Assembly (NCBI GenBank): GCA_902493795.1
Contig: CABUQZ010000009.1
Span: 3,329 to 67,328 of the forward strand
Origin: an uncultured Clostridium sp.
Lineage (GTDB): Bacteria > Bacillota_I > Bacilli_A > RF39 > UBA660
Length of the DNA stretch: 64,000 nt
Direction of reading: 5' to 3'
How positions within the stretch are numbered: position 1 is the first letter of the stretch; each line of letters starts with the position of its first letter. Below, in pieces: positions 6,901 to 36,227 of this stretch. The translations under genes were made by a program, and so were the position numbers. The notes under the pieces were generated by a model. It saw nothing but the letters and a program-made list of their open reading frames with translations. It was not told where the DNA came from and made no database searches.

Positions 6901-7042
6901 TTGTGGATGTGAAACATATTCTCGAGATATAAATAAATGTGGATGTGAAACATGGAAAGGATGGACAGGATGGAGCAACGCAAATTGTACCCCATCATCA
7001 TCAAATTCATCACAAACTGAATGTAGAACAGTTTACAATTAA
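3944..7042 (+). CDS. Giant modular type IV pilin-like (class III signal peptide) protein with tandem Cys-bracketed Ig/HYR-like modules and a Cys-rich C-terminal region
   Basis: N-terminus MKNKKGFTLIEMIGVVIIIGIIAIIAF has the prepilin motif K-G|F-T-L-I-E followed by a hydrophobic helix. GGTGAG RBS upstream. At least 6 modules end in D(N/K)AGN..(T/S)C...KKDG. The last roughly 190 aa carry many Cys, including repeated (K/R)(T/N)(S/E)ACG motifs. Confidence 0.85.
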   Translation: MKNKKGFTLIEMIGVVIIIGIIAIIAFNTFTGNLKEFRDDYYTDLERTLAESGKEFFNDNRRFRPDSVFSAQKVTLDVLVAKNYISEVEDYDGNSCRNDSYVIIIKEGKDDYTYHSCLVCSEDNFDNTDDSLCDPSWFDPSTISYGLGTLPTLYIYKGTSRDKLREQLTLPISIIKKDASGNILKEIRGDGIDDVPTILPKNIDVVDPNKVGTYKVEYEYIDAANEKQQKTTNVIVYENDAPRTNITYENIVARDLDGNPSIESGTYLSGKWVQKITLNLTANALTDPESKVVKYQWNKNGKWQDICTEVRSNGSCTREITTEMNEEISFRTIDSKGNIGIVTSPIVIRIDNTKPTCTLKKTGTIKDNGWYVSDVTVSFDIKNDLVPSNGNHNAISQVKISNITSMPGNISRTSSNDNKVHSDDTDNVEYRGYVEDKAGNFYVCKTTLKKDGTAPSCSINLSGTKGDNDWYTTNVDVSFKTHSDNLSGVAKYGIGSYDGNRNITHKADTSSVTYTGYIKDNAGNTATCSNSFKKDGTAPSCSISLSGTKGDNDWYTTNVDVSFRSNTDNLSGVAKYGIGSYDGNRSTTHTADTSSVTYTGYIKDNAGNTATCSNSFKKDGTAPSCSINLSGTKGDNDWYTTNVDVSFKTHSDNLSGVAKYGIGSYDGNRNTTHTADTSSVTYTGYIKDKAGNTATCSDSFKKDGTKPSCGNWSGESTSWTKENREISVGCSDSTSTCDKSKYSTTISSGTTSTKSISFEIKDKAGNKETCRKTANVYVDKEAPTCTTSKSNEGTTSGVNVSISCNNVGNGSNVTCPSSENGVKSSKTYTVRDAAGNTSTCNVSVTPQSQKRTNTCSTGKRCSSASCETYTECKTSACGVNKYKSCKNSACGTEKCNCSSCYTTKNTCVGGYVDKIIYDTGDSFTSQDCYNKQGVVDSSGRRCIKSEWNSCKTGSPNECVYGCGTCNKTCRTEACGIESYNSCRTSACGCETYSRDINKCGCETWKGWTGWSNANCTPSSSNSSQTECRTVYN
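5301..6056 (+). repeat. Three near-identical in-frame 252-bp (84-aa) tandem repeats inside the pilin-like gene
   Basis: The string cagcgccatcttgtagcatta recurs at 5301, 5553 and 5805 (period 252). Units encode TAPSCSI(N/S)LSGTKGDNDWYTTNVDVSF...YIKD(N/K)AGNTATCS(N/D)SFKKDG. Confidence 0.95.
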
Positions 7043-7070
7043 AAATTGATAATATATTTTAAAACAGAAA

Positions 7071-7102
7071 GGGTAAACAAAAAAATATGTTTACCTTTTT
7101 TT
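7071..7102 (+). terminator. Rho-independent terminator of the pilin-like gene
   Basis: Stem gggtaaaca ... tgtttacc followed by ttttttt. Confidence 0.75.
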
Positions 7103-7134
7103 GCATTTTAGCTTGTCAACTTTATTTCTACTCA

Positions 7135-7163
7135 TTGCAAATAAAACAAAATTATGCTATAAT
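7135..7163 (+). promoter_or_regulatory. Sigma-A-type promoter (TTGCAA-17-TATAAT with extended -10 TGc)
   Basis: ttgcaa at 7135-7140, 17-nt spacer, tgc-tataat at 7155-7163. Precedes a leader of about 100 nt to the small CDS at 7266. Confidence 0.65.
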
Positions 7164-7265
7164 TCGTTAGTAGTAGTGAATACTGGATTAGTATTTAATT
7201 AATCTCTTCGTCATGAAAAGTTAACTAAAGAAGTCCAAATATTATACTAAGAAGGAGAGATTAAA

Positions 7266-7439
7266 GTGGCAGAAACAGAATACAAAGACAAAACAATAAA
7301 ATGTGTTGATTGTGGAACTGAATTCGTTTTCACAGCTGGTGAACAAGCTTTCTATGCTGAAAAAGGTTTAACAAATGAACCAAAAAGATGTAAACCATGC
7401 CGTGATAAAAGAAAAGAAGAAAAAAACAATAATAAGTAG
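7266..7439 (+). CDS. Small zinc-ribbon protein (57 aa, CxxC...CxxC), GTG start; absent from the ORF track
   Basis: GAAGGAGAGA RBS ends 5 nt before the GTG. Translation: VAETEYKDKTIKCVDCGTEFVFTAGEQAFYAEKGLTNEPKRCKPCRDKRKEEKNNNK. This pattern (CxxCg.eF.f...EQ.FY.ekG...P.rC..Cr) is typical of the widespread 'probable zinc-ribbon domain' small proteins. Confidence 0.75.
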   Translation: MAETEYKDKTIKCVDCGTEFVFTAGEQAFYAEKGLTNEPKRCKPCRDKRKEEKNNNK

Positions 7440-7492
7440 TTTTTTCGACAAAAATTACTCTTCGTGTTTGTTACCATTAATTTGGTGATAAC

Positions 7493-7924
7493 ATGAAGGG
7501 TAATTTTTTTGCTTATGTATTAATTGCAATAATTCTAGGGTTTATCTCTGCAGAAGTTATATATGATGATTATAAAGATGGACTAGATGATAACAAATAT
7601 AACGCTTACTTAGTACAAATAGGAAGTTTTAAAGACGATGATGAAATAGATCCAGGTAACTATTTAGTTTTAGAAGAAGATGGAACATATAATGTCTATG
7701 CAGGAATAACAACAAAACTTTCTAATGCAACAAAAATAAAGAACATGTATGAAAGTGAAAATGTAAACACATATATAAAACCTATTGTTATTGATAACGT
7801 TGAATTTATGAGTAATCTAGAACAATTTGATATTTTACTAGAAGAAGTTGATTCTAAAGATAATTTAATTTCTATAAATGATGTCATAATATCTGAATAT
7901 GAACAAACTGTATTAGGAAAATAA
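7493..7924 (+). CDS. Membrane-anchored protein with a possible SPOR-like domain
   Basis: N-terminal TM FFAYVLIAIILGFISA. YNAYLVQIGSFKDDDE and GTYNVYAGITTKLSNATKIKNMY resemble the SPOR repeat pattern (y.vQvGsF / y.V.aG.f.s...A). Weak call. Confidence 0.45.
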   Translation: MKGNFFAYVLIAIILGFISAEVIYDDYKDGLDDNKYNAYLVQIGSFKDDDEIDPGNYLVLEEDGTYNVYAGITTKLSNATKIKNMYESENVNTYIKPIVIDNVEFMSNLEQFDILLEEVDSKDNLISINDVIISEYEQTVLGK

Positions 7925-7957
7925 AAAATTATAGATAATAATATCATTGGTGATATT

Positions 7958-8641
7958 ATGAAAATAAAAGAACTTCCAAAAGAAGAAAGACCTCGTGAAA
8001 GATTAATAAATTATGGAGTTAAAAATTTATCAAATGAAGAACTGCTATCTATTATTTTAAGATGTGGGACTAAAAAGGAATCAGTAAAAGATCTAGCAAT
8101 TAACATAATAAACGAATTTAAAACTATCTCTAATTTAAAAAATGCAACTATAAACAAACTGCAAGAAATAGATGGTATGGGTTTATCGAAAGCCTCAGTT
8201 ATTTTAGCATCGATAGAGCTAGGAAAAAGAGTATACTTTCAAGAAAATTCTAGTAAACTAGTATTAAATAGTCCAGATAAAATATATGAAAATACTAAAT
8301 ATTTATTTACAAATAAAAAACAAGAATTGTTTTACTGTCTTTATTTCAATAATAAACAACAACTAATTGGAAAAGAATTATTATTTATTGGAACGGTAAA
8401 TAAAAGTATAACTCATCCAAGAGAAATTTTTAAATATGCTTATTTGTATTCTGCTACAAGTATTGTTTGCCTACATAATCATCCATCAGGTGATGTTGCT
8501 CCTTCAAAAGAAGATATGTTTTTTACAGATTCGTTAGTAAATATAGGATTAGTTCAAAAAATACCAATATTAGATCACATTATTGTAAGTGATAATAACT
8601 ATTATAGTTTTCGAGAAAATGGGAAAATTATAAATAGGTGA
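7958..8641 (+). CDS. radC: RadC/JAB-domain protein
   Basis: N-terminal HhH region (ELPKEERPRERL..., LSNEELLSIILR). JAMM motif HNHPSGDVAPSKED. Positioned directly upstream of mreC as in Bacillus. Confidence 0.9.
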   Translation: MKIKELPKEERPRERLINYGVKNLSNEELLSIILRCGTKKESVKDLAINIINEFKTISNLKNATINKLQEIDGMGLSKASVILASIELGKRVYFQENSSKLVLNSPDKIYENTKYLFTNKKQELFYCLYFNNKQQLIGKELLFIGTVNKSITHPREIFKYAYLYSATSIVCLHNHPSGDVAPSKEDMFFTDSLVNIGLVQKIPILDHIIVSDNNYYSFRENGKIINR

Positions 8642-8645
8642 TTTT

Positions 8646-9371
8646 ATGAAGAAGAGGAAAAAAAGTAAAAAGAATAACAAAATAAAAGATAGGTTATTAA
8701 TTTTTATAATGTTTTTTTTATTAGCACTTTCGTATTTTGAATTAAATAGTGATATTCGTCTTGGTAATATCATAAAAGATCTTATTTTCTATCCTTCAAG
8801 TAATGTTAAAACACAGGCTTTTATTAAAACATATGAAACTGAGTTAATTGAAGAAAATAAAGAATTAAAAAAAATAATGAATATTAAATTATCTTTAACG
8901 GATTTTGATATAGAATATGGAACAGTTATAGAAAGGAACAATTCTTACTGGCTAGAAGAACTAACAATAAATAAAGGACTACTAAATGGTATAAAAAAGG
9001 ATTCACCAGTAATTACTGAAGGTGGTCTAATAGGTAAAATATCCTCAGTGTCATTAAGTAATTCAACTATTAAACTAATAACAAATGAAGAATCATCTAT
9101 TCCTATAACAATAAATAAAAAAAATAAACTACTAACAACTAAAAATAATAAAGTTATTATAAGAGGAATAAATGCTAAAGATAAAATAAAAGTAGGAGAT
9201 AGTGTAACAACTAGTGGTCTTTCAAGTAGTTTCCCAAAAGGAATACTAATTGGTACAGTATCAAGTATTACTAAAGAAAAAGATAAAGTTGGATATATAG
9301 CAGAAGTTAAATTAAGTAGTAATATTGATAATTTAAGATTTGTAGCAGTATTAAAAAGGAAAATATCATGA
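8646..9371 (+). CDS. mreC: Rod shape-determining protein MreC
   Basis: N-terminal TM, coiled coil (ELIEENKELKK), and C-terminal beta domains with VITEGGLIGKISSV and TTSGLSSSFPKGILIGTV. Followed by mreD through an ATGA overlap. Confidence 0.85.
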   Translation: MKKRKKSKKNNKIKDRLLIFIMFFLLALSYFELNSDIRLGNIIKDLIFYPSSNVKTQAFIKTYETELIEENKELKKIMNIKLSLTDFDIEYGTVIERNNSYWLEELTINKGLLNGIKKDSPVITEGGLIGKISSVSLSNSTIKLITNEESSIPITINKKNKLLTTKNNKVIIRGINAKDKIKVGDSVTTSGLSSSFPKGILIGTVSSITKEKDKVGYIAEVKLSSNIDNLRFVAVLKRKIS

Positions 9372-23748: not shown

Positions 23749-23775
23749 AAAGTATTAGAGATTTCTAATACTTTT
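23749..23775. terminator. Bidirectional hairpin terminator between convergent topA and the DUF3592 gene
   Basis: Stem agtattaga, loop gatt, stem tctaatact, flanked by A-run and T-run. Confidence 0.65.
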
Positions 23776-24478
23776 ATTGTGGCATATATTTATTTAAGGA
23801 TTCAATATCCATAACGTATTCTTTGTAATTACTAGGATTTACATATACTGGAATTTTTTGAATGTTATTACTTGCAATTACATTAGGTGTATCATCGTAT
23901 ATATTATCGCTTGTAAATTCATAAGTTGTTCCATCTGGTCCAACTGCTGAAGCTTTAATAACAAATGGGCTAACACCATTTACTCTAACACTTGTATTTT
24001 GAATAACACTAACTATATTAGCATCAATAAGACAACCATATCCTATAATTCTTTTACTTTTTTTCTTTTTCTTTAAATTAGCTATAAACCAAATCAAAGG
24101 TATTAATACGAATACACCACCTAAAATAGAAAATATAATTACTATTATTGAACTATCACTAGACATTATTTCACCAGGGTTATCAGGATTATAATAAATA
24201 GTAACAATATTACCCTCTCTCATAGAAGAATTATAAGTATTTAATTCCTCATTATATGTTTTACCATCAACAAAGTATGATACATACACATCGTAATCAG
24301 AGTCACCATCACCATGATACCTTTCATTAATTCTTGTAATAGTAGCCTCGGTCTTTATAGCATTTTTCATGAAATTTTTAGTATCATTCCAAATAAAAAA
24401 TCCTAAAGCAACAAATATAATACCAACAATCAAAAAAATTGACATAACTATTTTTACTGTTTTATTTCCTCGTTTCAT
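23774..24478 (-). CDS. DUF3592-like membrane protein
   Basis: TM, then a beta-rich segment (ATITRINE...DVYVSYFVDGKTY...GNIVTIYYNPDNPGE), a second TM and basic stretch, then a second similar beta domain. This is the pattern typical of DUF3592. Confidence 0.6.
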   Translation of the reverse strand: MKRGNKTVKIVMSIFLIVGIIFVALGFFIWNDTKNFMKNAIKTEATITRINERYHGDGDSDYDVYVSYFVDGKTYNEELNTYNSSMREGNIVTIYYNPDNPGEIMSSDSSIIVIIFSILGGVFVLIPLIWFIANLKKKKKSKRIIGYGCLIDANIVSVIQNTSVRVNGVSPFVIKASAVGPDGTTYEFTSDNIYDDTPNVIASNNIQKIPVYVNPSNYKEYVMDIESLNKYMPQ

Positions 24479-24565: not shown

Positions 24566-26443
24566 TTACACGATATTATTTTTCTTTGCTAAAACTTTTT
24601 GATATTGAATTTGATAATCATCAATACTTCTTCTTTTATTATTAATTATTTCTGCTGTTTCATCAAGCTTATCTTCCATTTTTTTAATGTCATCTTTTGT
24701 ATAAGGATTTAAAAGAAATTTTTTAATGCATTCGTTTACTAAATTATCTGCAAGTCTTCTAAGAGGACTAGTAGAGTGGGAATAATACTTTGTACCCAAA
24801 CCAAAGTGCCCCACATTTTTTCTTGAATAGTATGCAACTGGCATTAATCTTTTAATCATATCGATATTATTAGCTATTTTATTTTCATCATTTTCTTTCA
24901 ATAAACTTTGTAATCTATCGAGTTTAATAATATCTTCTTCTTCAATATGATGACATCTATATAGGAATGGCAAATCAAGCTCTTTAAACTTTTTAGCAAC
25001 ATGATGGTTTGTATAAATCATAGCACTTTCGACAATTGAAGATCCAATTGATTTATCTTGATTACCATGAAACTGCTCATATAATTCATTTTCGTTATAA
25101 ACTCTTTTTAAAATAGGAGAGATATTAGATAAATGATAAACAATTTCAGCTAGTTCATCACTTCCTGTACCATTTTTCAAACATTCATCAAAAGATGAGT
25201 AAGATAGATTACCTGCAATTTCACATATCTCATTTTTAATATCAAAATTAATAAGATTTCCATTTCTTGCATCAATATCAAAATAATATGACATACAGTG
25301 CGTTTTCTTGCCAGTATTTAAACTCATCAAGTCCCCAGATAACTCTAGCAAATATAATGGAATACAATCATCATCCATATATATAGAAGTAGTTCTTCTT
25401 TTAGCTTCATCCATTAATATCGAATTTTCATCAATATAACTTCCAGGATCTGCAATATGTACACCTAAGTGATATATACCATCTTCATAAGTAATAGATA
25501 ACCCATCATCAAGTTCTTTAGCACCTTCACAATCAAATGTATATATCTTTCTATCAGTAGAAATAGGACCAATATCCTTATTCCTTAAAATAATATTTTT
25601 AGCTTCTAATTTATGTGCTTCCTTAAAATTATCATGTATTTCATATTTATAATTTAGATAAGAAATATCTTCTTCATTTTCTATTCCTAAAATAACGTCA
25701 ATAGCATTATTAGTATAAAAAGATAGCTTTTCTTTATGACGAGATGTTAAACATTCTTCTTTACTTGCAAAATCTTTTATTTTTTCAATAAGTAATTTCT
25801 TATTATATTTATTTGTACTTTTAACTAAGAAAGAAAATACTTTATCAAAGTAAATTAAATCATCTAAAGGGCCTAAATTAGGCTTAGATAAATAAGTATG
25901 TAAAGAAGATAAATAACCATCTAAAACTCTTTCAATTAAAGGAATATCATTTTTATCTATTGAATTACTTAAATAAGGAAATCTAGTTAAAGATTTTTCA
26001 ACAAAATTATAATACTTTAACTTAAATATAATATGATCGATAAATTCTTCTTTATTAGGATCATAATCAACTGGATTTTCAATATATATTCTAAGTAGTG
26101 TATTTTCCATTTTATTTAAAACATTGCAAAGTAACTTATATTTACTTCGTTCTTTACTATTTTGTGGCTTATTACTATGAAGAATAGTTCTTATATTATT
26201 ATGAATGAATATAAATCTTTCATATAAATTTTTTCTTATATTTTGATTATCCCCAATTAAATTTGCTAATTCGTCAAACAAAGAAAATAAATACGTTATA
26301 TCACTTTCATTTTCGTAACTAAAATTATTAATTTCATCTTCAAGTATTTCTACTAAAGCGTTACAAGCTTTAAATTTATTACTAGTTTGTAATCTTTCTT
26401 TTTCATTAAGAAGTAAATCTTTAATATGATCTATATAACTCAT
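24566..26443 (-). CDS. RNB-domain 3'-5' exoribonuclease (RNase II/R superfamily), atypical architecture
   Basis: RNB motifs GAKELDDGLSI, GVHIADPGSYI and STSPLRRLADNLV. GGAGGG RBS 8 nt before the ATG at 26443 (MSYIDH...). Confidence 0.8.
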   Translation of the reverse strand: MSYIDHIKDLLLNEKERLQTSNKFKACNALVEILEDEINNFSYENESDITYLFSLFDELANLIGDNQNIRKNLYERFIFIHNNIRTILHSNKPQNSKERSKYKLLCNVLNKMENTLLRIYIENPVDYDPNKEEFIDHIIFKLKYYNFVEKSLTRFPYLSNSIDKNDIPLIERVLDGYLSSLHTYLSKPNLGPLDDLIYFDKVFSFLVKSTNKYNKKLLIEKIKDFASKEECLTSRHKEKLSFYTNNAIDVILGIENEEDISYLNYKYEIHDNFKEAHKLEAKNIILRNKDIGPISTDRKIYTFDCEGAKELDDGLSITYEDGIYHLGVHIADPGSYIDENSILMDEAKRRTTSIYMDDDCIPLYLLELSGDLMSLNTGKKTHCMSYYFDIDARNGNLINFDIKNEICEIAGNLSYSSFDECLKNGTGSDELAEIVYHLSNISPILKRVYNENELYEQFHGNQDKSIGSSIVESAMIYTNHHVAKKFKELDLPFLYRCHHIEEEDIIKLDRLQSLLKENDENKIANNIDMIKRLMPVAYYSRKNVGHFGLGTKYYSHSTSPLRRLADNLVNECIKKFLLNPYTKDDIKKMEDKLDETAEIINNKRRSIDDYQIQYQKVLAKKNNIV

Positions 26444-26622
26444 AACTAAAACCCTCCACAATTATTATAAAATACTTTTCTTGAATTTTGAAGGATTATG
26501 TAGTATAATATAGGCTAATTTTATGCACATGTATATAAAATGGGGTAATTATAAGTGTGATAATAGCGTTTTTTGTTTGCTAAAATTTTATATTTAGCAC
26601 TATAAAGAAAGAGGGTATAAAA

Positions 26623-27531
26623 ATGGAAGTAATAATTAAAGATAAGAAAAGTGATATCATAACTGCTCAAAAAATTGTTAGCCGTGATTTTAAGATGAAT
26701 TCTAATGAAAACTTTTATATAAATTCAGGAATATATAATTTCACTAATGAGGCAGTAGCAGATCCTCTTTATAAAAGCGAGATAACAAATAAAAACAAAA
26801 TATTATCAGTTATTGCTTCAGGTGACCAAATTCTAAATTCGATATTGTTAGGTAGCACAGATATAACAGGTTTTGATATAAGTAGATTTCCTAAGTACTA
26901 CTTATTATTAAAAATTGCTGCTATACATGCTTTAGATAAAGAAGAATTTTTAGACTTTTTCTCATTTCATGGAACGGAAGAAGAAGTTGAAAGAAAATTT
27001 GATAAAATAATAGAACATTTAGACCCTGTAGCACTAGAATTTTGGCAAAGCTTATATGATTATTTTGAACCGTATGAAATATCAAGTTCAATGTTATTTA
27101 CAAGTAGTTATGTAGATAGATTAATGGCAGTAGTTTTTAATCCATATTTACAAGGTGATAAAGCATATGATGAATTAAAAGAAAAGTTACAAGATGTAAA
27201 ACTAAATTTAATTGATGGTAATATTTATTCTTTAGTAAGAGAACATAAATTTAAGGAACCATTTGACCTTGCTAATGTTTCAAATATTTTAGGAGGTAAT
27301 AAACAAAAAGATAATATAGAACTTCTTGAAAAAATACCATTAAATACTAATGCTAGTATACTTGGATATATGTTTTATTATGCGGTAGATGAAGAGAAAG
27401 AAAAAGAAAAAAAAGAAGTAGAAAAAAGTCTTACAAATAATAATATAACTACTAAAGTAAATGATGCTACATTAACAAATGGCGCAGGACTAATTCTAAC
27501 TAAAAGGAAAAGAAAAATATGGAAAATGTAA
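26623..27531 (+). CDS. DUF3419/BtaA-like SAM-fold protein, type A copy 1
   Basis: Motif I-like ILSVIASGDQILNS, acidic residue at ITGFDIS, and FPKYYLLLKIAAIHALDKEEFLDFF. Basic C-terminus LTKRKRK. Confidence 0.55.
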   Translation: MEVIIKDKKSDIITAQKIVSRDFKMNSNENFYINSGIYNFTNEAVADPLYKSEITNKNKILSVIASGDQILNSILLGSTDITGFDISRFPKYYLLLKIAAIHALDKEEFLDFFSFHGTEEEVERKFDKIIEHLDPVALEFWQSLYDYFEPYEISSSMLFTSSYVDRLMAVVFNPYLQGDKAYDELKEKLQDVKLNLIDGNIYSLVREHKFKEPFDLANVSNILGGNKQKDNIELLEKIPLNTNASILGYMFYYAVDEEKEKEKKEVEKSLTNNNITTKVNDATLTNGAGLILTKRKRKIWKM

Positions 27532-28406
27532 AAGAAGATGTTAGAATAGCACAACATGTAATAGAAGGGGATTTATTAATAATATTTGAACCAACATTTC
27601 ACTCACATTCTATTATCTATCCATCTACAAATGAAAAAATAAGCTCTCCTATATATAAAGATAGTTTAAAAAATAAAGAAAAAATACTATCGGTAATTGG
27701 TTCAGGTGATCAAATACTAAATTCAGTATTATTAGGGAGTAAACAAATAACAGGATTTGACATTTCATGTTTTACAGGTTATTATCTAAAACTAAAAATT
27801 GCAGCTTTAAAATCATTAAATTATCACGAATATCTTTCTTTCTTCTCATGTCAAAGTAAAAATAGATTTTCAAAAAAAATATATGAAAAAATAATTCCAT
27901 ATTTAGATAGTGACACAGAATATTTCTGGAGTAGTATTTTTAGTTTGTATGATGCTAAGGTAATAGGTTTTTCCAATTTGTTTGTAATGGTAAATAATAA
28001 TAAATTTAAACAAAATAACCCATATCTAGAATCAAAAGAAGAATATGAACTTCTAAAATCAAAAATAAAAGACATCGATATAAACTTGATATATAAAGAT
28101 ATATTTGAACTTGTAAATGAATTAACTGATAAATATAATTTGATAAATCTTTCGAATATTGTTGATTACAACATTAAAGGAGTAACGGTGGGAAACATTG
28201 TAAAAATTGATTGTCGATCTAGGGAAAAAATTAATAGACTGTTAAGAAACCTACCCATGGAAAATGAAGGAATAACTCTTATGTATTCAATGGATTATAA
28301 TATGGCAAGAATGATAGATGTTATTTTAACATCAAATGAAATGGAACATAATGAATATGAAATCGATTGCTTTCATAAATTAATTTTATCAAGAAAAAGA
28401 AAATAA
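27519..28406 (+). CDS. DUF3419/BtaA-like SAM-fold protein, type B copy 1
   Basis: ILSVIGSGDQILNS, ITGFDIS, and FTGYYLKLKIAALKSLNYHEYLSFF. C-terminus LSRKRK. 13-nt overlap with the preceding gene. Confidence 0.55.
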   Translation: MENVKEDVRIAQHVIEGDLLIIFEPTFHSHSIIYPSTNEKISSPIYKDSLKNKEKILSVIGSGDQILNSVLLGSKQITGFDISCFTGYYLKLKIAALKSLNYHEYLSFFSCQSKNRFSKKIYEKIIPYLDSDTEYFWSSIFSLYDAKVIGFSNLFVMVNNNKFKQNNPYLESKEEYELLKSKIKDIDINLIYKDIFELVNELTDKYNLINLSNIVDYNIKGVTVGNIVKIDCRSREKINRLLRNLPMENEGITLMYSMDYNMARMIDVILTSNEMEHNEYEIDCFHKLILSRKRK

Positions 28407-28420
28407 AAGGGGAAATAAAA

Positions 28421-29296
28421 ATGATAGTAAATAGTTTTGAAGTAGAAAAAGATATAGATAAAGCAGAAAAAGTAATAACTTCATCTTTGGAAAAAAATAA
28501 TAAAAGCTTTGATAGTAATTCAGGAATATATTTATTTAGTAATGAAGATATGTCTGATAATGTTTATAGAAGAAACCTACAAGAAAAAAAGAATTTACTA
28601 TCAGTTATTGGATCAGGTGATCAAGTAATTAACTCTATTTTATTTGGAAGTGAAAATATAAAAGCATTTGATATAAGTAATTTTCCAAAATATTTACTTC
28701 TTCTTAAACTAGGAGCAATAAAAAGTCTTACAAAAGAAGAATTTATGTCTTTCTTTGTAACAGAATCTAATGAAAAAGAATTATTAACTCTATTTAAAAA
28801 AATAGCAAATAATTTAGATGAAGATACACTAAGGTTTTGGTATTATTTAATTTCTAATTTTGGTATAGAACTAATAAGAGATTCCGAGTTGATAAAAAAA
28901 GTAAGAATGGAATATATGAATCCTTTTCAAAATCCTTATTTAATTGATAGGAATTCATTTGAAATAATAAGAGAAAGACTACAAGATGTAAAATTATCTC
29001 TTTTTGATGAGGACATTTATTCTCTTATAAAAAAAGAAAATAAAAAAGAGAAATTTGATCTTGCAAATTTATCCAATATAACAAGTTACAATAGAAGAAA
29101 GGATAATTTAGAGTTACTTGAAAGTATTCCACTAAGTGAAGAAGGCTATATCTTAAATTATTTTTTTTACAATGGATATAGACCAAAAATCATAGGATCA
29201 AAACCATGTCCAAGCCTATCAAATGAAAATATTGAAAGTACTATTTTTGACCTAGAAAATAAAAAAGGTGGATTAATACTTTCAAAAAGAAAATAA
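28421..29296 (+). CDS. DUF3419/BtaA-like SAM-fold protein, type A copy 2
   Basis: LLSVIGSGDQVINS, FPKYLLLLKLGAIKSLTKEEFMSFF, and FDLANLSNI. C-terminus LSKRK. Most similar to 26623..27531. Confidence 0.55.
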   Translation: MIVNSFEVEKDIDKAEKVITSSLEKNNKSFDSNSGIYLFSNEDMSDNVYRRNLQEKKNLLSVIGSGDQVINSILFGSENIKAFDISNFPKYLLLLKLGAIKSLTKEEFMSFFVTESNEKELLTLFKKIANNLDEDTLRFWYYLISNFGIELIRDSELIKKVRMEYMNPFQNPYLIDRNSFEIIRERLQDVKLSLFDEDIYSLIKKENKKEKFDLANLSNITSYNRRKDNLELLESIPLSEEGYILNYFFYNGYRPKIIGSKPCPSLSNENIESTIFDLENKKGGLILSKRK

Positions 29297-29312
29297 GAAA
29301 GAAGATGATAAA

Positions 29313-30176
29313 ATGAAAGATATAAGAAAAGATATAGATGAAGCAGAAAAATTAATAGAAGGAGCTCTATACAATCCATTTAAACCATTTTCTAGTCACT
29401 CATCAATTTATTCTTTTACTAATGAAAAAGCAAACAGCGAAATCTACAAAAAGACACTAGAAAATAAAGAAAAAATATTAACAATAGTAGGTTCAGGAGA
29501 TCAAATCCTTAATTCCATATTACTAGGAAGTAAAGATATAACGGCAACTGATATTTCTAATTTTACAGAGTATTATTTTAATTTAAAGTTAAAAGCAGTA
29601 AAAGCGTTAACATACGAAGAATATTTAGAGTTTTTCGACTTGAAAAGTAGAAAATGTTTTAGAAAAGATTTATACGAAAAAATATTGCCATTTTTAGATA
29701 GAGAAACTGCTTACTTTTGGAGTGTTTTATTTAGTTCTCATAAAACTACAAAGATAAGAAAATCTGATTTTTTTATGCCTGAAAACAATAGCTTTTTTAA
29801 GTCTATAAATATTAAAGATTATATTAAAAACAACCCTTATTTATCATCTCCTGATAATTATAAAAAACTAAAATCAAAAATAAATGATGTAAATATTAAT
29901 ATAATAATTGGAAATATTTTCGCTCTAATTGGTACATTAAGAAATGGTTATGATTTAGTGAATGCTTCCAATATAATGGATTATCATCATGGAAGTGAAT
30001 ATTTGTTCTTTCTAGAGCAATGCGACTTAAAAGAAGATGGAGTAATACTAGGATACTCAATGGCACGTGGAATAAATGCTGATAATTTAGAAAGAGCCTA
30101 TACAAATGGAATAGTGTTATCAGAAGGTCATCAATTAGATAAAAAACATAAGTTACTATTAACAAGAAAAAGATAA
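29313..30176 (+). CDS. DUF3419/BtaA-like SAM-fold protein, type B copy 2
   Basis: ILTIVGSGDQILNS and FTEYYFNLKLKAVKALTYEEYLEFF. C-terminus LTRKR. Most similar to 27519..28406. Confidence 0.55.
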   Translation: MKDIRKDIDEAEKLIEGALYNPFKPFSSHSSIYSFTNEKANSEIYKKTLENKEKILTIVGSGDQILNSILLGSKDITATDISNFTEYYFNLKLKAVKALTYEEYLEFFDLKSRKCFRKDLYEKILPFLDRETAYFWSVLFSSHKTTKIRKSDFFMPENNSFFKSINIKDYIKNNPYLSSPDNYKKLKSKINDVNINIIIGNIFALIGTLRNGYDLVNASNIMDYHHGSEYLFFLEQCDLKEDGVILGYSMARGINADNLERAYTNGIVLSEGHQLDKKHKLLLTRKR

Positions 30177-30187
30177 ATAATTTTAAG

Positions 30188-30210
30188 AGTACACGAAAGT
30201 GTATTTTTTT
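30188..30210 (+). terminator. Rho-independent terminator closing the four-gene block
   Basis: Stem gtacac, loop gaaa, stem gtgtat, followed by ttttttt. Confidence 0.6.
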
Positions 30211-30370
30211 AATAAGGAATTTTCTCGTAAAATTATAAAGCTAATAATACTAACTTTGTATTAAGTTATTTAAAAAAATAATAAGAGAAATATCGTTATA
30301 AATTTTTACTAAAAGTATTTAAAAATAGATATTAATTTGGTAAAATGTTATCTGTATGAGAGGTGTTAAA

Positions 30371-31117
30371 ATGAAAAAATATGTAATGAGTTTTTTTGTG
30401 ATAATTCTAGTATTATTTTTAACTGGATGTGGTTCATCTAATAGTGATTTAGGATTAAAAGACGATAAAGATAAACCAAATCCACCTGTTGCTAATAAAG
30501 AAATAGTTAAAATAGTTAAAGGTTATGAAGAAGGTAATGATGAAGCTATTGTCAAACTAGAAAATGATAATAAGTATTATGTTGTTGATGATAAAATATT
30601 ATATAGCTTTGAAGAAAAAGAAGAAAATGAGAACTTTTTTAAGATTAGAGATAAATATTTAGTAGTTTATAAAATTAGTAAAAAAGAAAGAGTTAATTAT
30701 ATCTTAAATCTTGAAACTGGTAAAAAGATTTATGAAGGAACAGATATCTTAGAGTATATTGATATAACAGAAGATGGTTATGTCTTAGTAAAAGAAATAA
30801 AAGAGGAATTATCAGGAACAACTTATAAATATAAGATAGTTGATAAAAATGGTAAGGAAACTTGGAGAGATGATGATTCTTATTATAATGCAAATATGTT
30901 TAAAGCAATTTATAAGAATGTTGTAGTTTATAGTGATATTAGTTATAACACATTTAAAATAATTGATGCAGTAAGTGGTAAAGAAACAGATTTTGGACTT
31001 ACTGGACATAATTCTTATTTTGAGTATCATGTTTATGGTGATGATATATTGATGGGTATTTCAGCTAATAATGATAAATATCGTATCTATAAAGTTTCTG
31101 AAAAACACAATGATTAA
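30371..31117 (+). CDS. Lipoprotein, unknown function
   Basis: Signal peptide with lipobox (FFVIILVLFLTGCGSS). RBS gagaggtg before the ATG at 30371. Confidence 0.7.
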   Translation: MKKYVMSFFVIILVLFLTGCGSSNSDLGLKDDKDKPNPPVANKEIVKIVKGYEEGNDEAIVKLENDNKYYVVDDKILYSFEEKEENENFFKIRDKYLVVYKISKKERVNYILNLETGKKIYEGTDILEYIDITEDGYVLVKEIKEELSGTTYKYKIVDKNGKETWRDDDSYYNANMFKAIYKNVVVYSDISYNTFKIIDAVSGKETDFGLTGHNSYFEYHVYGDDILMGISANNDKYRIYKVSEKHND

Positions 31118-31604
31118 TACGAAATTGAGTCATGTAAAGAAATTGTTAGATGATAAAAGAGTTTATGCAGAACCTTTATGGGAAACACCTGGTATTTATA
31201 ATTATGAAGATCAAAAATTACTTAAGGGATTTGACGAAGGCGGAATAGTACATTTTGCTGAATATAATGATAAATACTATATTATTAGTCAAACTAATTT
31301 CTATTATGTAATCGATGATAATTATAATTATGTTAAAGAACCAGTTAAGTTACCAGATGATATGACATATAATAGCGTTGAATTTAAAGAATTTGGTATG
31401 GTTATTAAGAAGGGTGCTGCAACTGGTACTATTAATTATGTTACTTACGAAGATATTCTTAAGGAAGATAATTTTTTAGATAAGAAAAAAACAGTTGAAG
31501 GTAAATTGGATGGTACAAATAAAGAATATGGTTTCTTAGGAAAAGATGGTAAATATAAATTAGTTGAAATGAATACTTTAAAAGAAGTTAAATTAAGTAA
31601 ATAA
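31110..31604 (+). CDS. Hypothetical protein, translationally coupled to the lipoprotein gene
   Basis: The ATG at 31110 overlaps the upstream stop (atgattaa). Shares the NDKYY(V/I)..D motif with the upstream product. Confidence 0.5.
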   Translation: MINTKLSHVKKLLDDKRVYAEPLWETPGIYNYEDQKLLKGFDEGGIVHFAEYNDKYYIISQTNFYYVIDDNYNYVKEPVKLPDDMTYNSVEFKEFGMVIKKGAATGTINYVTYEDILKEDNFLDKKKTVEGKLDGTNKEYGFLGKDGKYKLVEMNTLKEVKLSK

Positions 31605-35270: not shown

Positions 35271-36122
35271 TCAAGCTCTTTTTTCTTTTATTACTCTTTC
35301 TAATATATGTTCTGCTATTTCTTTAGTCTTATTATCTTTATCGAGTAATGGATTAAATTCTACTAGATCAAAAGATGTAATTAACTCTTTTCTTTTTAAT
35401 AACTCTTCTAAAATTTCAAATGCTTCTTCTTTGTTTATTCCACAAGATGCCTTAACGCTAACACCAGGTGCTATAACAGGGTCAATAACATCAAGGTCAT
35501 AACTAATGTGCACCCCACGAAGCCCAGAAACAATTTGAAAAGCTTTATCAATTATTTCTTTTACTCCGTATTTTTTAATATCCTCAGTTGTAAAAACAGT
35601 AACCCCAGCTTTTTCTAAATTAATGTATTCAGCATCTTCAATATCTCTTCCACCAATAAGAACAGTCTTCTTAGGATCAAAATAGCTATCATCATAAAAT
35701 GATGTTAAATAATTTCCATTTTGAAAAGATACACTAGCAAATGGCATTCCATGAAGGTTACCAGAAATAGTTGAATCCATATTGTGATAATCAGAGTGGG
35801 CATCAATCCAAAAAAGTCCAATGTTCTTGTATTTCTTTTTAGCACCCAAAGAAGACCCAATTGCTATCGCATGATCTCCTCCAATAGTAACTACAAAGTC
35901 ATTAGTATTAACAATTTTTTCATATAACTCTTTGTTAAACTTATTAACATACTTAATGTTTCTTTTTTTGTTTCCACTTTCAACTTCTTTTTTTACATCA
36001 TCTTTTTTCAAAACGATAACGCTATCAACTTCGTTATCATACTTATTTAATTCTAATGGTCCTAATTCACTTCCAGAGATATGTACCCCTAAATCAGAAC
36101 AAGCTTTTACAAATGTAGTCAT
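35271..36122 (-). CDS. Arginase-family ureohydrolase (arginase/agmatinase/formiminoglutamase type)
   Basis: Mn-binding motifs GGDHAIAIGS, IDAHSDYH and SYDLDVIDP. GGAGG RBS before the ATG at 36122 (MTTFVKA...). Confidence 0.85.
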   Translation of the reverse strand: MTTFVKACSDLGVHISGSELGPLELNKYDNEVDSVIVLKKDDVKKEVESGNKKRNIKYVNKFNKELYEKIVNTNDFVVTIGGDHAIAIGSSLGAKKKYKNIGLFWIDAHSDYHNMDSTISGNLHGMPFASVSFQNGNYLTSFYDDSYFDPKKTVLIGGRDIEDAEYINLEKAGVTVFTTEDIKKYGVKEIIDKAFQIVSGLRGVHISYDLDVIDPVIAPGVSVKASCGINKEEAFEILEELLKRKELITSFDLVEFNPLLDKDNKTKEIAEHILERVIKEKRA

Positions 36123-36227
36123 AAATACCTCCAAAATAACTATAATATAAACAAATAAATAATTCAATGCTTTTAAGTTGTTTAATTTTTTTTGAAAATA
36201 ATGTATACTCTTATTAAGAGGTTAAAT

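Follow-up and report, generated by a model that had tools for sequence, protein, structure and literature searches.

What do four neighboring copies of an uncharacterized protein family do for a gut bacterium, and do they work as pairs or as separate enzymes? We examined this question at a locus of an uncultured Clostridium sp. of the RF39 lineage (UBA660), in a stretch of 64,000 nucleotides (nt) that we call the window (GenBank assembly GCA_902493795.1, contig CABUQZ010000009.1, positions 3,329 to 67,328). Four genes, G1 to G4, lie in tandem at positions 26623-30176 (+) of the window. The original prediction, made from the DNA letters alone, described them as an A-B-A-B array of proteins related to DUF3419, the family of the betaine-lipid synthase BtaA, and proposed that A and B form a duplicated, cooperating pair of S-adenosylmethionine (SAM) enzymes. 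Its description of the genes and of their duplication holds. The proposal of a conserved two-component system is not supported, and the reading that we judge reasonably probable is that G1-G4 form an operon of paralogous, individually active, cytoplasmic SAM-dependent transferases. These copies would differ mainly in acceptor specificity and are probably not obligatory subunits of one another.

G1-G4 belong to a compact branch of DUF3419

The four open reading frames (ORFs) are co-oriented and encode proteins of 287-302 amino acids (aa), as predicted. Each protein carries the motifs listed at the outset, namely motif I of the form (I/V)(G/A)SGDQ(I/V)(L/I)NS, an acidic residue downstream of it, an LK..A...FF helix, and a basic C terminus. 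A hidden Markov model search also bears out the proposed family membership, since all four proteins score well above the gathering cutoff (28.2 bits) for Pfam PF11899, DUF3419 (see Table 1 for scores). This match covers only positions 3-126 of the 385-position model (protein residues about 27-153) and leaves the C-terminal half unrecognized. At ~290 aa, the proteins are also about 100 aa shorter than the model.

Other searches gave G1-G4 no second family. Pfam returned no canonical methyltransferase family (Methyltransf_11/12/23/25/31 and similar) at E<=1, no spermidine synthase match, and no RNA-binding domain such as THUMP, PUA, or S4, and NCBIfam gave nothing above noise. No solved homologue was found in the PDB by sequence with either a 4-sequence or a 44-sequence profile, and a tblastn search for plasmid-borne or annotated relatives yielded a single chance-level match (E 0.8). 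A role in defense was considered and set aside: PADLOC gave one sub-threshold partial match, to G1 (E 1.2e-3, 16 bits), and none to G2-G4 or to the four flanking genes tested.

An exhaustive profile search recovered 3990 clusters at E<=1e-3, of which 935 reach E<=1e-30. From these we define a short DUF3419 clade of about 900 clusters at 50% identity, drawn mostly from uncultured gut Bacilli of low guanine-plus-cytosine (GC) content. The best 150 clusters are 256-340 aa long and matched over most of their length, apart from a few of 151-249 aa and one protein of 611 aa (P0091) that is described below. Precomputed Pfam annotation assigns PF11899 to most of the listed relatives, and their names in the sources checked say nothing beyond "hypothetical protein." No publication on the function of short DUF3419 proteins was found in the literature searched, in line with the original statement that stand-alone proteins of this kind have no published function. 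The short DUF3419 clade is thus a compact (~290 aa) branch without a functional assignment in any source checked.

The only characterized DUF3419 enzyme is BtaA, which moves the 3-amino-3-carboxypropyl (ACP) group of SAM to diacylglycerol. G1-G4 are probably not orthologues of BtaA, because they match one-third of the model, are ~100 aa shorter, have no BtaB-like flanking gene, and come from gut-anaerobe hosts; model coverage, length, and gene context all set them apart.

The predicted structure is a class I SAM-dependent transferase with a helical lid

G4 was modelled by AlphaFold2 on a 44-sequence family alignment, and the model is of high confidence (predicted local distance difference test score, pLDDT, 92.2; predicted template modelling score, pTM, 0.92). 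Its fold is that of a class I SAM-dependent transferase and is complete: helices alternate with seven strands (54-58, 75-80, 194-199, 213-217, 239-249, 268-274, and 280-286), the last two of which form a hairpin. A Foldseek search of this model against the PDB gave 169 matches at E<=1e-3. The best 50 of these are class I methyl- and aminopropyltransferases together with the uncharacterized protein 6ULO. The neighbors at E 5e-8 to 1e-4 include AviRa, NNMT, Dot1L, and spermidine synthases, with RlmKL also listed, at template modelling (TM) scores of about 0.35-0.47. The model and these matches therefore bear out the SAM-binding fold that had been proposed for the array.

In the G4 model, motif I (S61-G62-D63-Q64) follows beta1, and D80, 17 aa after D63, ends beta2. 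Between beta2 and beta3 the fold accommodates a helical lid of ~110 aa (residues 84-192), which holds the DUF3419 signature (LK..A, FF, and FW). Eight residues are invariant in the 44-sequence alignment (E38, S61, G62, D63, D80, K92, N174, and S219). All are retained in G1-G4 and in each of the 16 array orthologues introduced below.

The basic C terminus was originally read as a tag of the array. It is indeed present in G1-G4, but the whole family shares it: at least 90% of members conserve K286, and typical endings are ...VYKKVK and ...LILSRKRK. These basic residues close or directly follow the last beta-strand, a strand that is modelled confidently. The last strand of a class I fold runs antiparallel, and its C terminus is expected to point away from the SAM site. 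Because of this textbook topology, it is more likely that the polybasic C terminus tethers the enzyme to an anionic surface, whether membrane or nucleic acid, than that it takes part in catalysis. Apart from this tail, the proteins are acidic to neutral, with isoelectric points (pI) of 5.3, 6.6, 5.5, and 8.7 for G1 to G4 and a family median of 5.5. Neither a signal peptide nor a hydrophobic segment was seen in the four sequences.

These properties bear on the simplest functional proposal, in which each copy is a BtaA-type lipid enzyme that moves ACP from SAM to diacylglycerol or another membrane lipid to give homoserine-type (betaine-lipid precursor) head groups. Membership in DUF3419, with BtaA as its sole characterized member, argues for this proposal, and the conserved polybasic C terminus could dock on anionic Gram-positive membranes. 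Nevertheless, we consider it improbable. The partial model match and the missing ~100 aa speak against it. The same is true of the flanking genes, because those annotated in the window and in related loci include no BtaB-like N-methyltransferase. Furthermore, the proteins are acidic and without a hydrophobic segment, and their hosts are gut anaerobes, whereas the known betaine lipids serve phosphate sparing. The proposal also leaves the presence of four paralogues unexplained.

An A-B unit was probably duplicated once

BLASTP comparisons reproduce the alternating similarity noted originally. G1 and G3 (type A) score 206 bits with 45% identity and G2 and G4 (type B) score 209 bits with 44% identity, versus 127-154 bits for the cross pairs. 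The same four-gene array occupies the same position in three sister lineages (L034-L038, L039/L040, and L041), and each gene has a 1:1 orthologue in all three. We built a neighbor-joining tree from these 16 array sequences (four copies in each of four lineages) and outgroups. The A pair (G1 + G3) is recovered with 100% bootstrap support, the B pair (G2 + G4) with 99-100%, and each orthologue group with 100%, whereas alternative pairings receive 0%.

The ((A1,A2),(B1,B2)) topology that had been proposed is therefore found. The divergence of A1 from A2 is nearly equal to that of B1 from B2, as expected if a single duplication of an A-B unit produced the A-B-A-B order. Recent gene conversion was looked for and not seen: the copies share only short 14-mers and 66-76% nucleotide identity over partial stretches. 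Outgroup copies match A and B with similar scores and show no affinity to either type.

Duplication of the A-B unit as a whole would suit an obligate heteromer, in which A and B are subunits of a heterodimeric SAM enzyme and the duplicated pair yields two complexes. The gene junctions offer this idea modest support. In each of the four lineages A1 overlaps B1 (-13, -20, -1, and -13 nt), and A2 overlaps B2 in two of them, whereas B1 and A2 are always separated by +14 to +23 nt. The proteins themselves speak less for it. Just six positions strictly distinguish A from B (P/T, K/Y, F/Y, Y/F, F/M, and K/R), and these exchanges are mostly conservative. Many heteromeric methyltransferases pair an active with a degenerate subunit, as in METTL3-METTL14 and TRMT61-TRMT6, but here both A and B keep all catalytic and SAM motifs.

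Related loci mostly carry a single copy

The distribution of the family bears directly on the heteromer. Scanning one genome from each GTDB species with a pattern gave 33 loci, in which copies were counted within +/-8 kb. Nearly all hosts are metagenome-assembled genomes (MAGs) of uncultured low-GC gut Bacilli (Coprobacillus sp. CAG:605, Candidatus Coprovivens, Candidatus Scybalousia, and "uncultured Tenericutes"). The gene is single copy at 31 of the 33 loci. It had been suggested that the idea of an undescribed system would fail if homologues were always single genes of known function; they are nearly always single, and none has a functional name in any source checked.

Neighbor clustering and three Pfam scans found no neighbor that is conserved across the 33 loci. 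The neighbors seen are heterogeneous housekeeping genes (among them topA, polA, cysteine desulfurase, signal peptidase, LysM, UvrD, MnmA, PBP, phosphoglucomutase, UDG, and YlmH), and a conserved operon partner was therefore rejected. Likewise, no BtaB-like or methyltransferase-family neighbor occurs among the annotated genes at 17.6-42.6 kb of the window or among the annotated neighbors of the related loci.

Copy number in the slot between topA and polA varies from one (L014) through two (L012 and L044) and three (L045) to four in the clade of the window; the count for L043 is limited by the length of its contig. The copies in L043-L045 form classes of their own (X, Y, and Z, with bootstraps of 100%, 89%, and 93%). 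Because these classes are separate from A and B, the two- and three-copy arrays of L043-L045 are independent expansions. The A/B pairing is thus a clade-specific outcome of recurrent tandem amplification and not a conserved two-component design.

One distant relative does combine two copies. P0091, a 611-aa protein from an ENA metagenome contig, is a natural fusion of two short DUF3419 copies. Its two halves share 50% identity, and both carry the SGDQ and LSNI motifs. This fusion is an independent duplication that may point to a dimeric working unit. Its AlphaFold2 model has a pLDDT of 61.5, with the second half below 50, and because the alignment rows spanned one half only it gave no usable interface.

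For the heteromer, P0091 is a further modest argument in favor, although the 50% identity of its halves fits a homodimeric origin equally well and its model supplies no interface. The predominance of single-gene loci and the confinement of the A/B distinction to this clade count against the heteromer, and the odd-numbered array of L045 speaks against a fixed 1:1 requirement for A and B. Overall, we regard an obligate A-B heteromer as possible but unlikely.

All four copies are constrained but evolve faster than their neighbors

Ratios of nonsynonymous to synonymous substitution rates (dN/dS) were taken at dS 0.4-1.0. Against a closer lineage they are 0.24, 0.29, 0.27, and 0.11 for G1 to G4, and against a more distant one 0.22, 0.32, 0.21, and 0.19, with G2 as the fastest-evolving copy. 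The corresponding values for the flanking polA, fpg, RNB, topA, and arginase-family genes are 0.04-0.10. Overall, the evolutionary rate of G1-G4 exceeds that of the housekeeping genes on either side by a factor of 2-6 (61-87% versus 90-96% amino acid identity). By these estimates, all four copies are intact and under purifying selection in four lineages. Neither type A nor type B looks like a degenerate, non-catalytic partner, because all family-invariant residues are kept in both.

The relaxed constraint relative to flanking genes might suggest redundant or decaying duplicates without a separate function. We give this very little credence, since four intact ORFs that keep all invariant residues, 1:1 orthology across four lineages, and dN/dS values of 0.11-0.32 at this depth largely refute it.

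The rate of change also bears on a role in tRNA or rRNA modification. Under that reading, the ancestral single copy would be a housekeeping enzyme that adds methyl or ACP to RNA, and its paralogues would target different sites. Housekeeping and nucleic-acid genes are neighbors in many lineages (topA, polA, fpg, UDG, UvrD, MnmA, cysteine desulfurase, YlmH, and TruB), the rRNA methyltransferases AviRa and RlmKL are among the fold neighbors, and the C terminus is basic. However, the proteins are acidic overall, lack a THUMP, PUA, or S4 domain by Pfam, and evolve much faster than the genes around them. Recurring lineage-specific expansion to 2-4 copies is, in our judgment, unusual for RNA modification enzymes, and the neighbors vary such that the context signal is weak. 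We regard a role in RNA modification as unlikely.

Acceptor specificity and the transferred group

Four traits, namely fast evolution, recurrent lineage-specific amplification, the absence of partners, and acidic cytosolic proteins, are easier to reconcile with enzymes that diversify in acceptor specificity than with a fixed complex or a core RNA-modification enzyme. Within this genus-level clade, the one gene of the topA-polA slot was amplified, and duplication of an A-B unit gave the A-B-A-B order. We propose that each copy would bind SAM beneath the helical lid and move an alkyl group from the SAM sulfonium to a nucleophile held by the lid. The paralogues would have diverged mainly in acceptor specificity, a case of subfunctionalization.

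The transferred group may be methyl, which we place first at a little short of an even chance. The ACP group, as used by BtaA, follows closely at roughly equal odds, and another group such as aminopropyl seems unlikely. Among acceptors, we rank a membrane lipid or glycolipid head group first, followed by a soluble metabolite, RNA, and protein. A more specific version is that the short DUF3419 clade is a new class of ACP (or aminopropyl) transferases acting on acceptors other than diacylglycerol, such as a glycolipid or lipoteichoic-acid anchor, a cell wall precursor, or RNA. In that version the paralogues install the group on different acceptors, possibly as A-B dimers; we offer it tentatively, as an unlikely but worthwhile idea. 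According to the literature, ACP-transferase activity is not predictable from sequence (PMC11869996).

Several observations weigh against our reading of G1-G4 as separate enzymes that differ in acceptor. First, the fold matches are generic (TM about 0.45) and do not single out a chemistry or an acceptor. Second, the analogy to BtaA is weak, given that the Pfam match spans model positions 3-126 of 385. Third, the differences in acceptor are deduced from the retention and divergence of the copies, yet few residues sharply discriminate between them. In addition, the position of the tail relative to the active site is taken from textbook topology, and a clade of all 16 array sequences receives only 30% bootstrap support, such that A and B may not be each other's closest relatives.

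The locus merits attention for the chemistry of the family, possibly a rare ACP transfer, more than for the array. SAM-dependent aminocarboxypropyl transferases are rare, and the only characterized DUF3419 enzyme belongs to them. The branch newly defined here is compact, confidently modelled, and widespread in uncultured gut Bacilli, and no functional name, solved sequence relative, or paper was found for it in the sources checked. If its members transfer ACP to a new acceptor, then this would be a new modification in Gram-positive envelope or RNA biology. If they are ordinary methyltransferases, then the array is a routine paralogue expansion. In either case, the four-copy operon supplies four natural variants for probing chemistry and specificity.

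Operon signals and neighboring genes

The features of the block are collected in Table 1. G1 and G2 overlap by 13 nt, as the original prediction stated, and gaps of 14 nt and 16 nt separate G2 from G3 and G3 from G4. The terminator that had been placed at the end of the block was also found: the hairpin has a dG of -10.7 kcal/mol and a z score of -5.64, and none of 200 shuffled sequences was equally stable. A simple terminator scan overlooked it because its stem has too few G-C pairs. The window is low in GC (about 24-33%). Promoter-like matches of this kind number 32, versus 31.4 expected from shuffled sequence. Such matches are not enriched, and the site upstream of G1 is only plausible as a promoter. 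Nonetheless, the block looks like one operon, because it has a leader with a promoter-like site, tight junctions, and a closing hairpin with a U tract.

Table 1. Positions of the four genes and of the candidate transcription signals around them in the window
Feature	Position	Strand	Basis
Candidate sigma-70-type promoter, TTGAAT-17-TATAAT	26481..26509	+	10/12 matches, 161-nt leader upstream of G1
G1, type A copy 1, 302 aa, short-form DUF3419 SAM-fold protein	26623..27531	+	ORF; PF11899 51.7 bits
G2, type B copy 1, 295 aa	27519..28406	+	ORF; PF11899 60.4 bits
G3, type A copy 2, 291 aa	28421..29296	+	ORF; PF11899 53.9 bits
G4, type B copy 2, 287 aa; copy used for modelling	29313..30176	+	ORF; PF11899 67.3 bits
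Intrinsic-terminator-like hairpin and U tract, end of four-gene block	30185..30210	+	RNA folding

The leader of G1 gave no Rfam match at E<=1, and a riboswitch or leader RNA was set aside; an Rfam scan of the whole window at gathering score found two tRNAs and nothing else.

One flank of the array holds topA, a DUF3592 gene, and a divergently transcribed gene with an RNB domain. The RNB-domain protein (RNase II/R type, 631 aa, 24566-26461 (-)) is matched by Pfam over residues 302-582 only, which leaves its first 300 aa unmatched, and its gene is the divergent neighbor of the array in all four array-bearing lineages. The gene that separates topA from the RNB gene encodes a DUF3592 membrane protein (23774-24478 (-)). 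The window and L040 have it, L034 lacks it, and it evolves fast (74% identity, dN/dS 0.34).

On the other flank, two small ORFs precede polA, fpg, and an arginase-family gene; a Mur ligase, TruB, and other housekeeping genes come next. The two small ORFs (30356-31117 (+) and 31071-31604 (+)) overlap by 47 nt and have no Pfam match, and the first carries a lipoprotein-type signal (…FLTGCGSS). They are a lineage-specific insertion, because in L039 polA follows G4 after 84 nt. The arginase/agmatinase-family gene (35271-36167 (-)), ~5 kb downstream, is conserved in a syntenic group (the window, L007, L014, and L039). It is a solitary gene amid others for peptidoglycan and tRNA, and its surroundings (Mur ligases, TruB, PPTase, and VanW) are not a polyamine cluster.

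Three further contexts were seen among the related loci. L032, from a MAG labelled Methanosarcinales, encodes the family member that diverges most, and there a radical-SAM gene lies upstream with a 22-nt overlap (genes 6931-7971 and 7950-8939); this is the only possibly coupled enzymatic neighbor among the loci seen. In five loci (L007, L013, L015, L019, and L027), a class V aminotransferase of the cysteine-desulfurase type, a thioredoxin-like protein, and a ~405-aa protein with no Pfam match are encoded in a recurring string upstream, with gaps of 6-91 nt to the short DUF3419 gene. This string may be mere synteny within one clade. Finally, a membrane-anchored protein of ~290-310 aa without a Pfam match is encoded directly before the arrays of L043 (1047-1910), L044 (1643-2578), and L045 (5241-6116). 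These were considered as hidden paralogues, an idea rejected by hidden Markov model comparison, which finds them unrelated.

Comparison with known enzymes

The best structural match to G4 is 6ULO, an uncharacterized protein of Leptospira interrogans (E 5.5e-8, TM 0.44). It has no detectable sequence similarity to G1-G4, its own function is likewise without assignment, and no publication on it was found in our literature search.

The aminopropyltransferases (SpeE) provide the PDB matches of lowest root-mean-square deviation to the G4 model (5.8-6.8 A). An alignment by hhalign places the family G-S-G-D on the G-G-G-D of SpeE (motif GGGDG) with the Asp in register. However, this alignment to Escherichia coli SpeE comprises only the 14 columns of motif I and is not significant (probability 0.2%, E 0.3), and the window offers no polyamine gene context besides the lone arginase-family gene 5 kb away. 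We did not adopt the polyamine or aminopropyl idea, and the invariant Asp in register with that of SpeE is kept only as a lead.

The proteins resemble class I methyltransferases such as NNMT, AviRa, Dot1L, and RlmKL in three ways: the sheet has seven strands and closes with a beta-hairpin, the loop after beta1 contains glycine, and beta2 ends with an acidic residue. They differ in that motif I reads S-G-D-Q instead of GxGxG and a large helical insert separates beta2 from beta3. TM scores to G4 are correspondingly only about 0.35-0.47, and no Methyltransf_* family is matched.

BtaA is the closest of the characterized enzymes by family. Like G1-G4 it is a Rossmann-type SAM enzyme, and the match to the DUF3419 model covers the N-terminal region that binds SAM together with the first helices of the lid, including the LK..A and FF motifs; no publication on a BtaA structure was found in our search. 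Bacterial BtaA is about 400 aa long, whereas G1-G4 have ~290 aa and match just the first third of the DUF3419 model. BtaA is encoded in a bacterial btaAB operon or as a BTA1 fusion and has been studied in proteobacteria, algae, and fungi. In contrast, the family of G1-G4 comes from MAGs of gut Bacilli, has no btaB partner among its annotated flanking genes, and occurs as one to four tandem paralogues.

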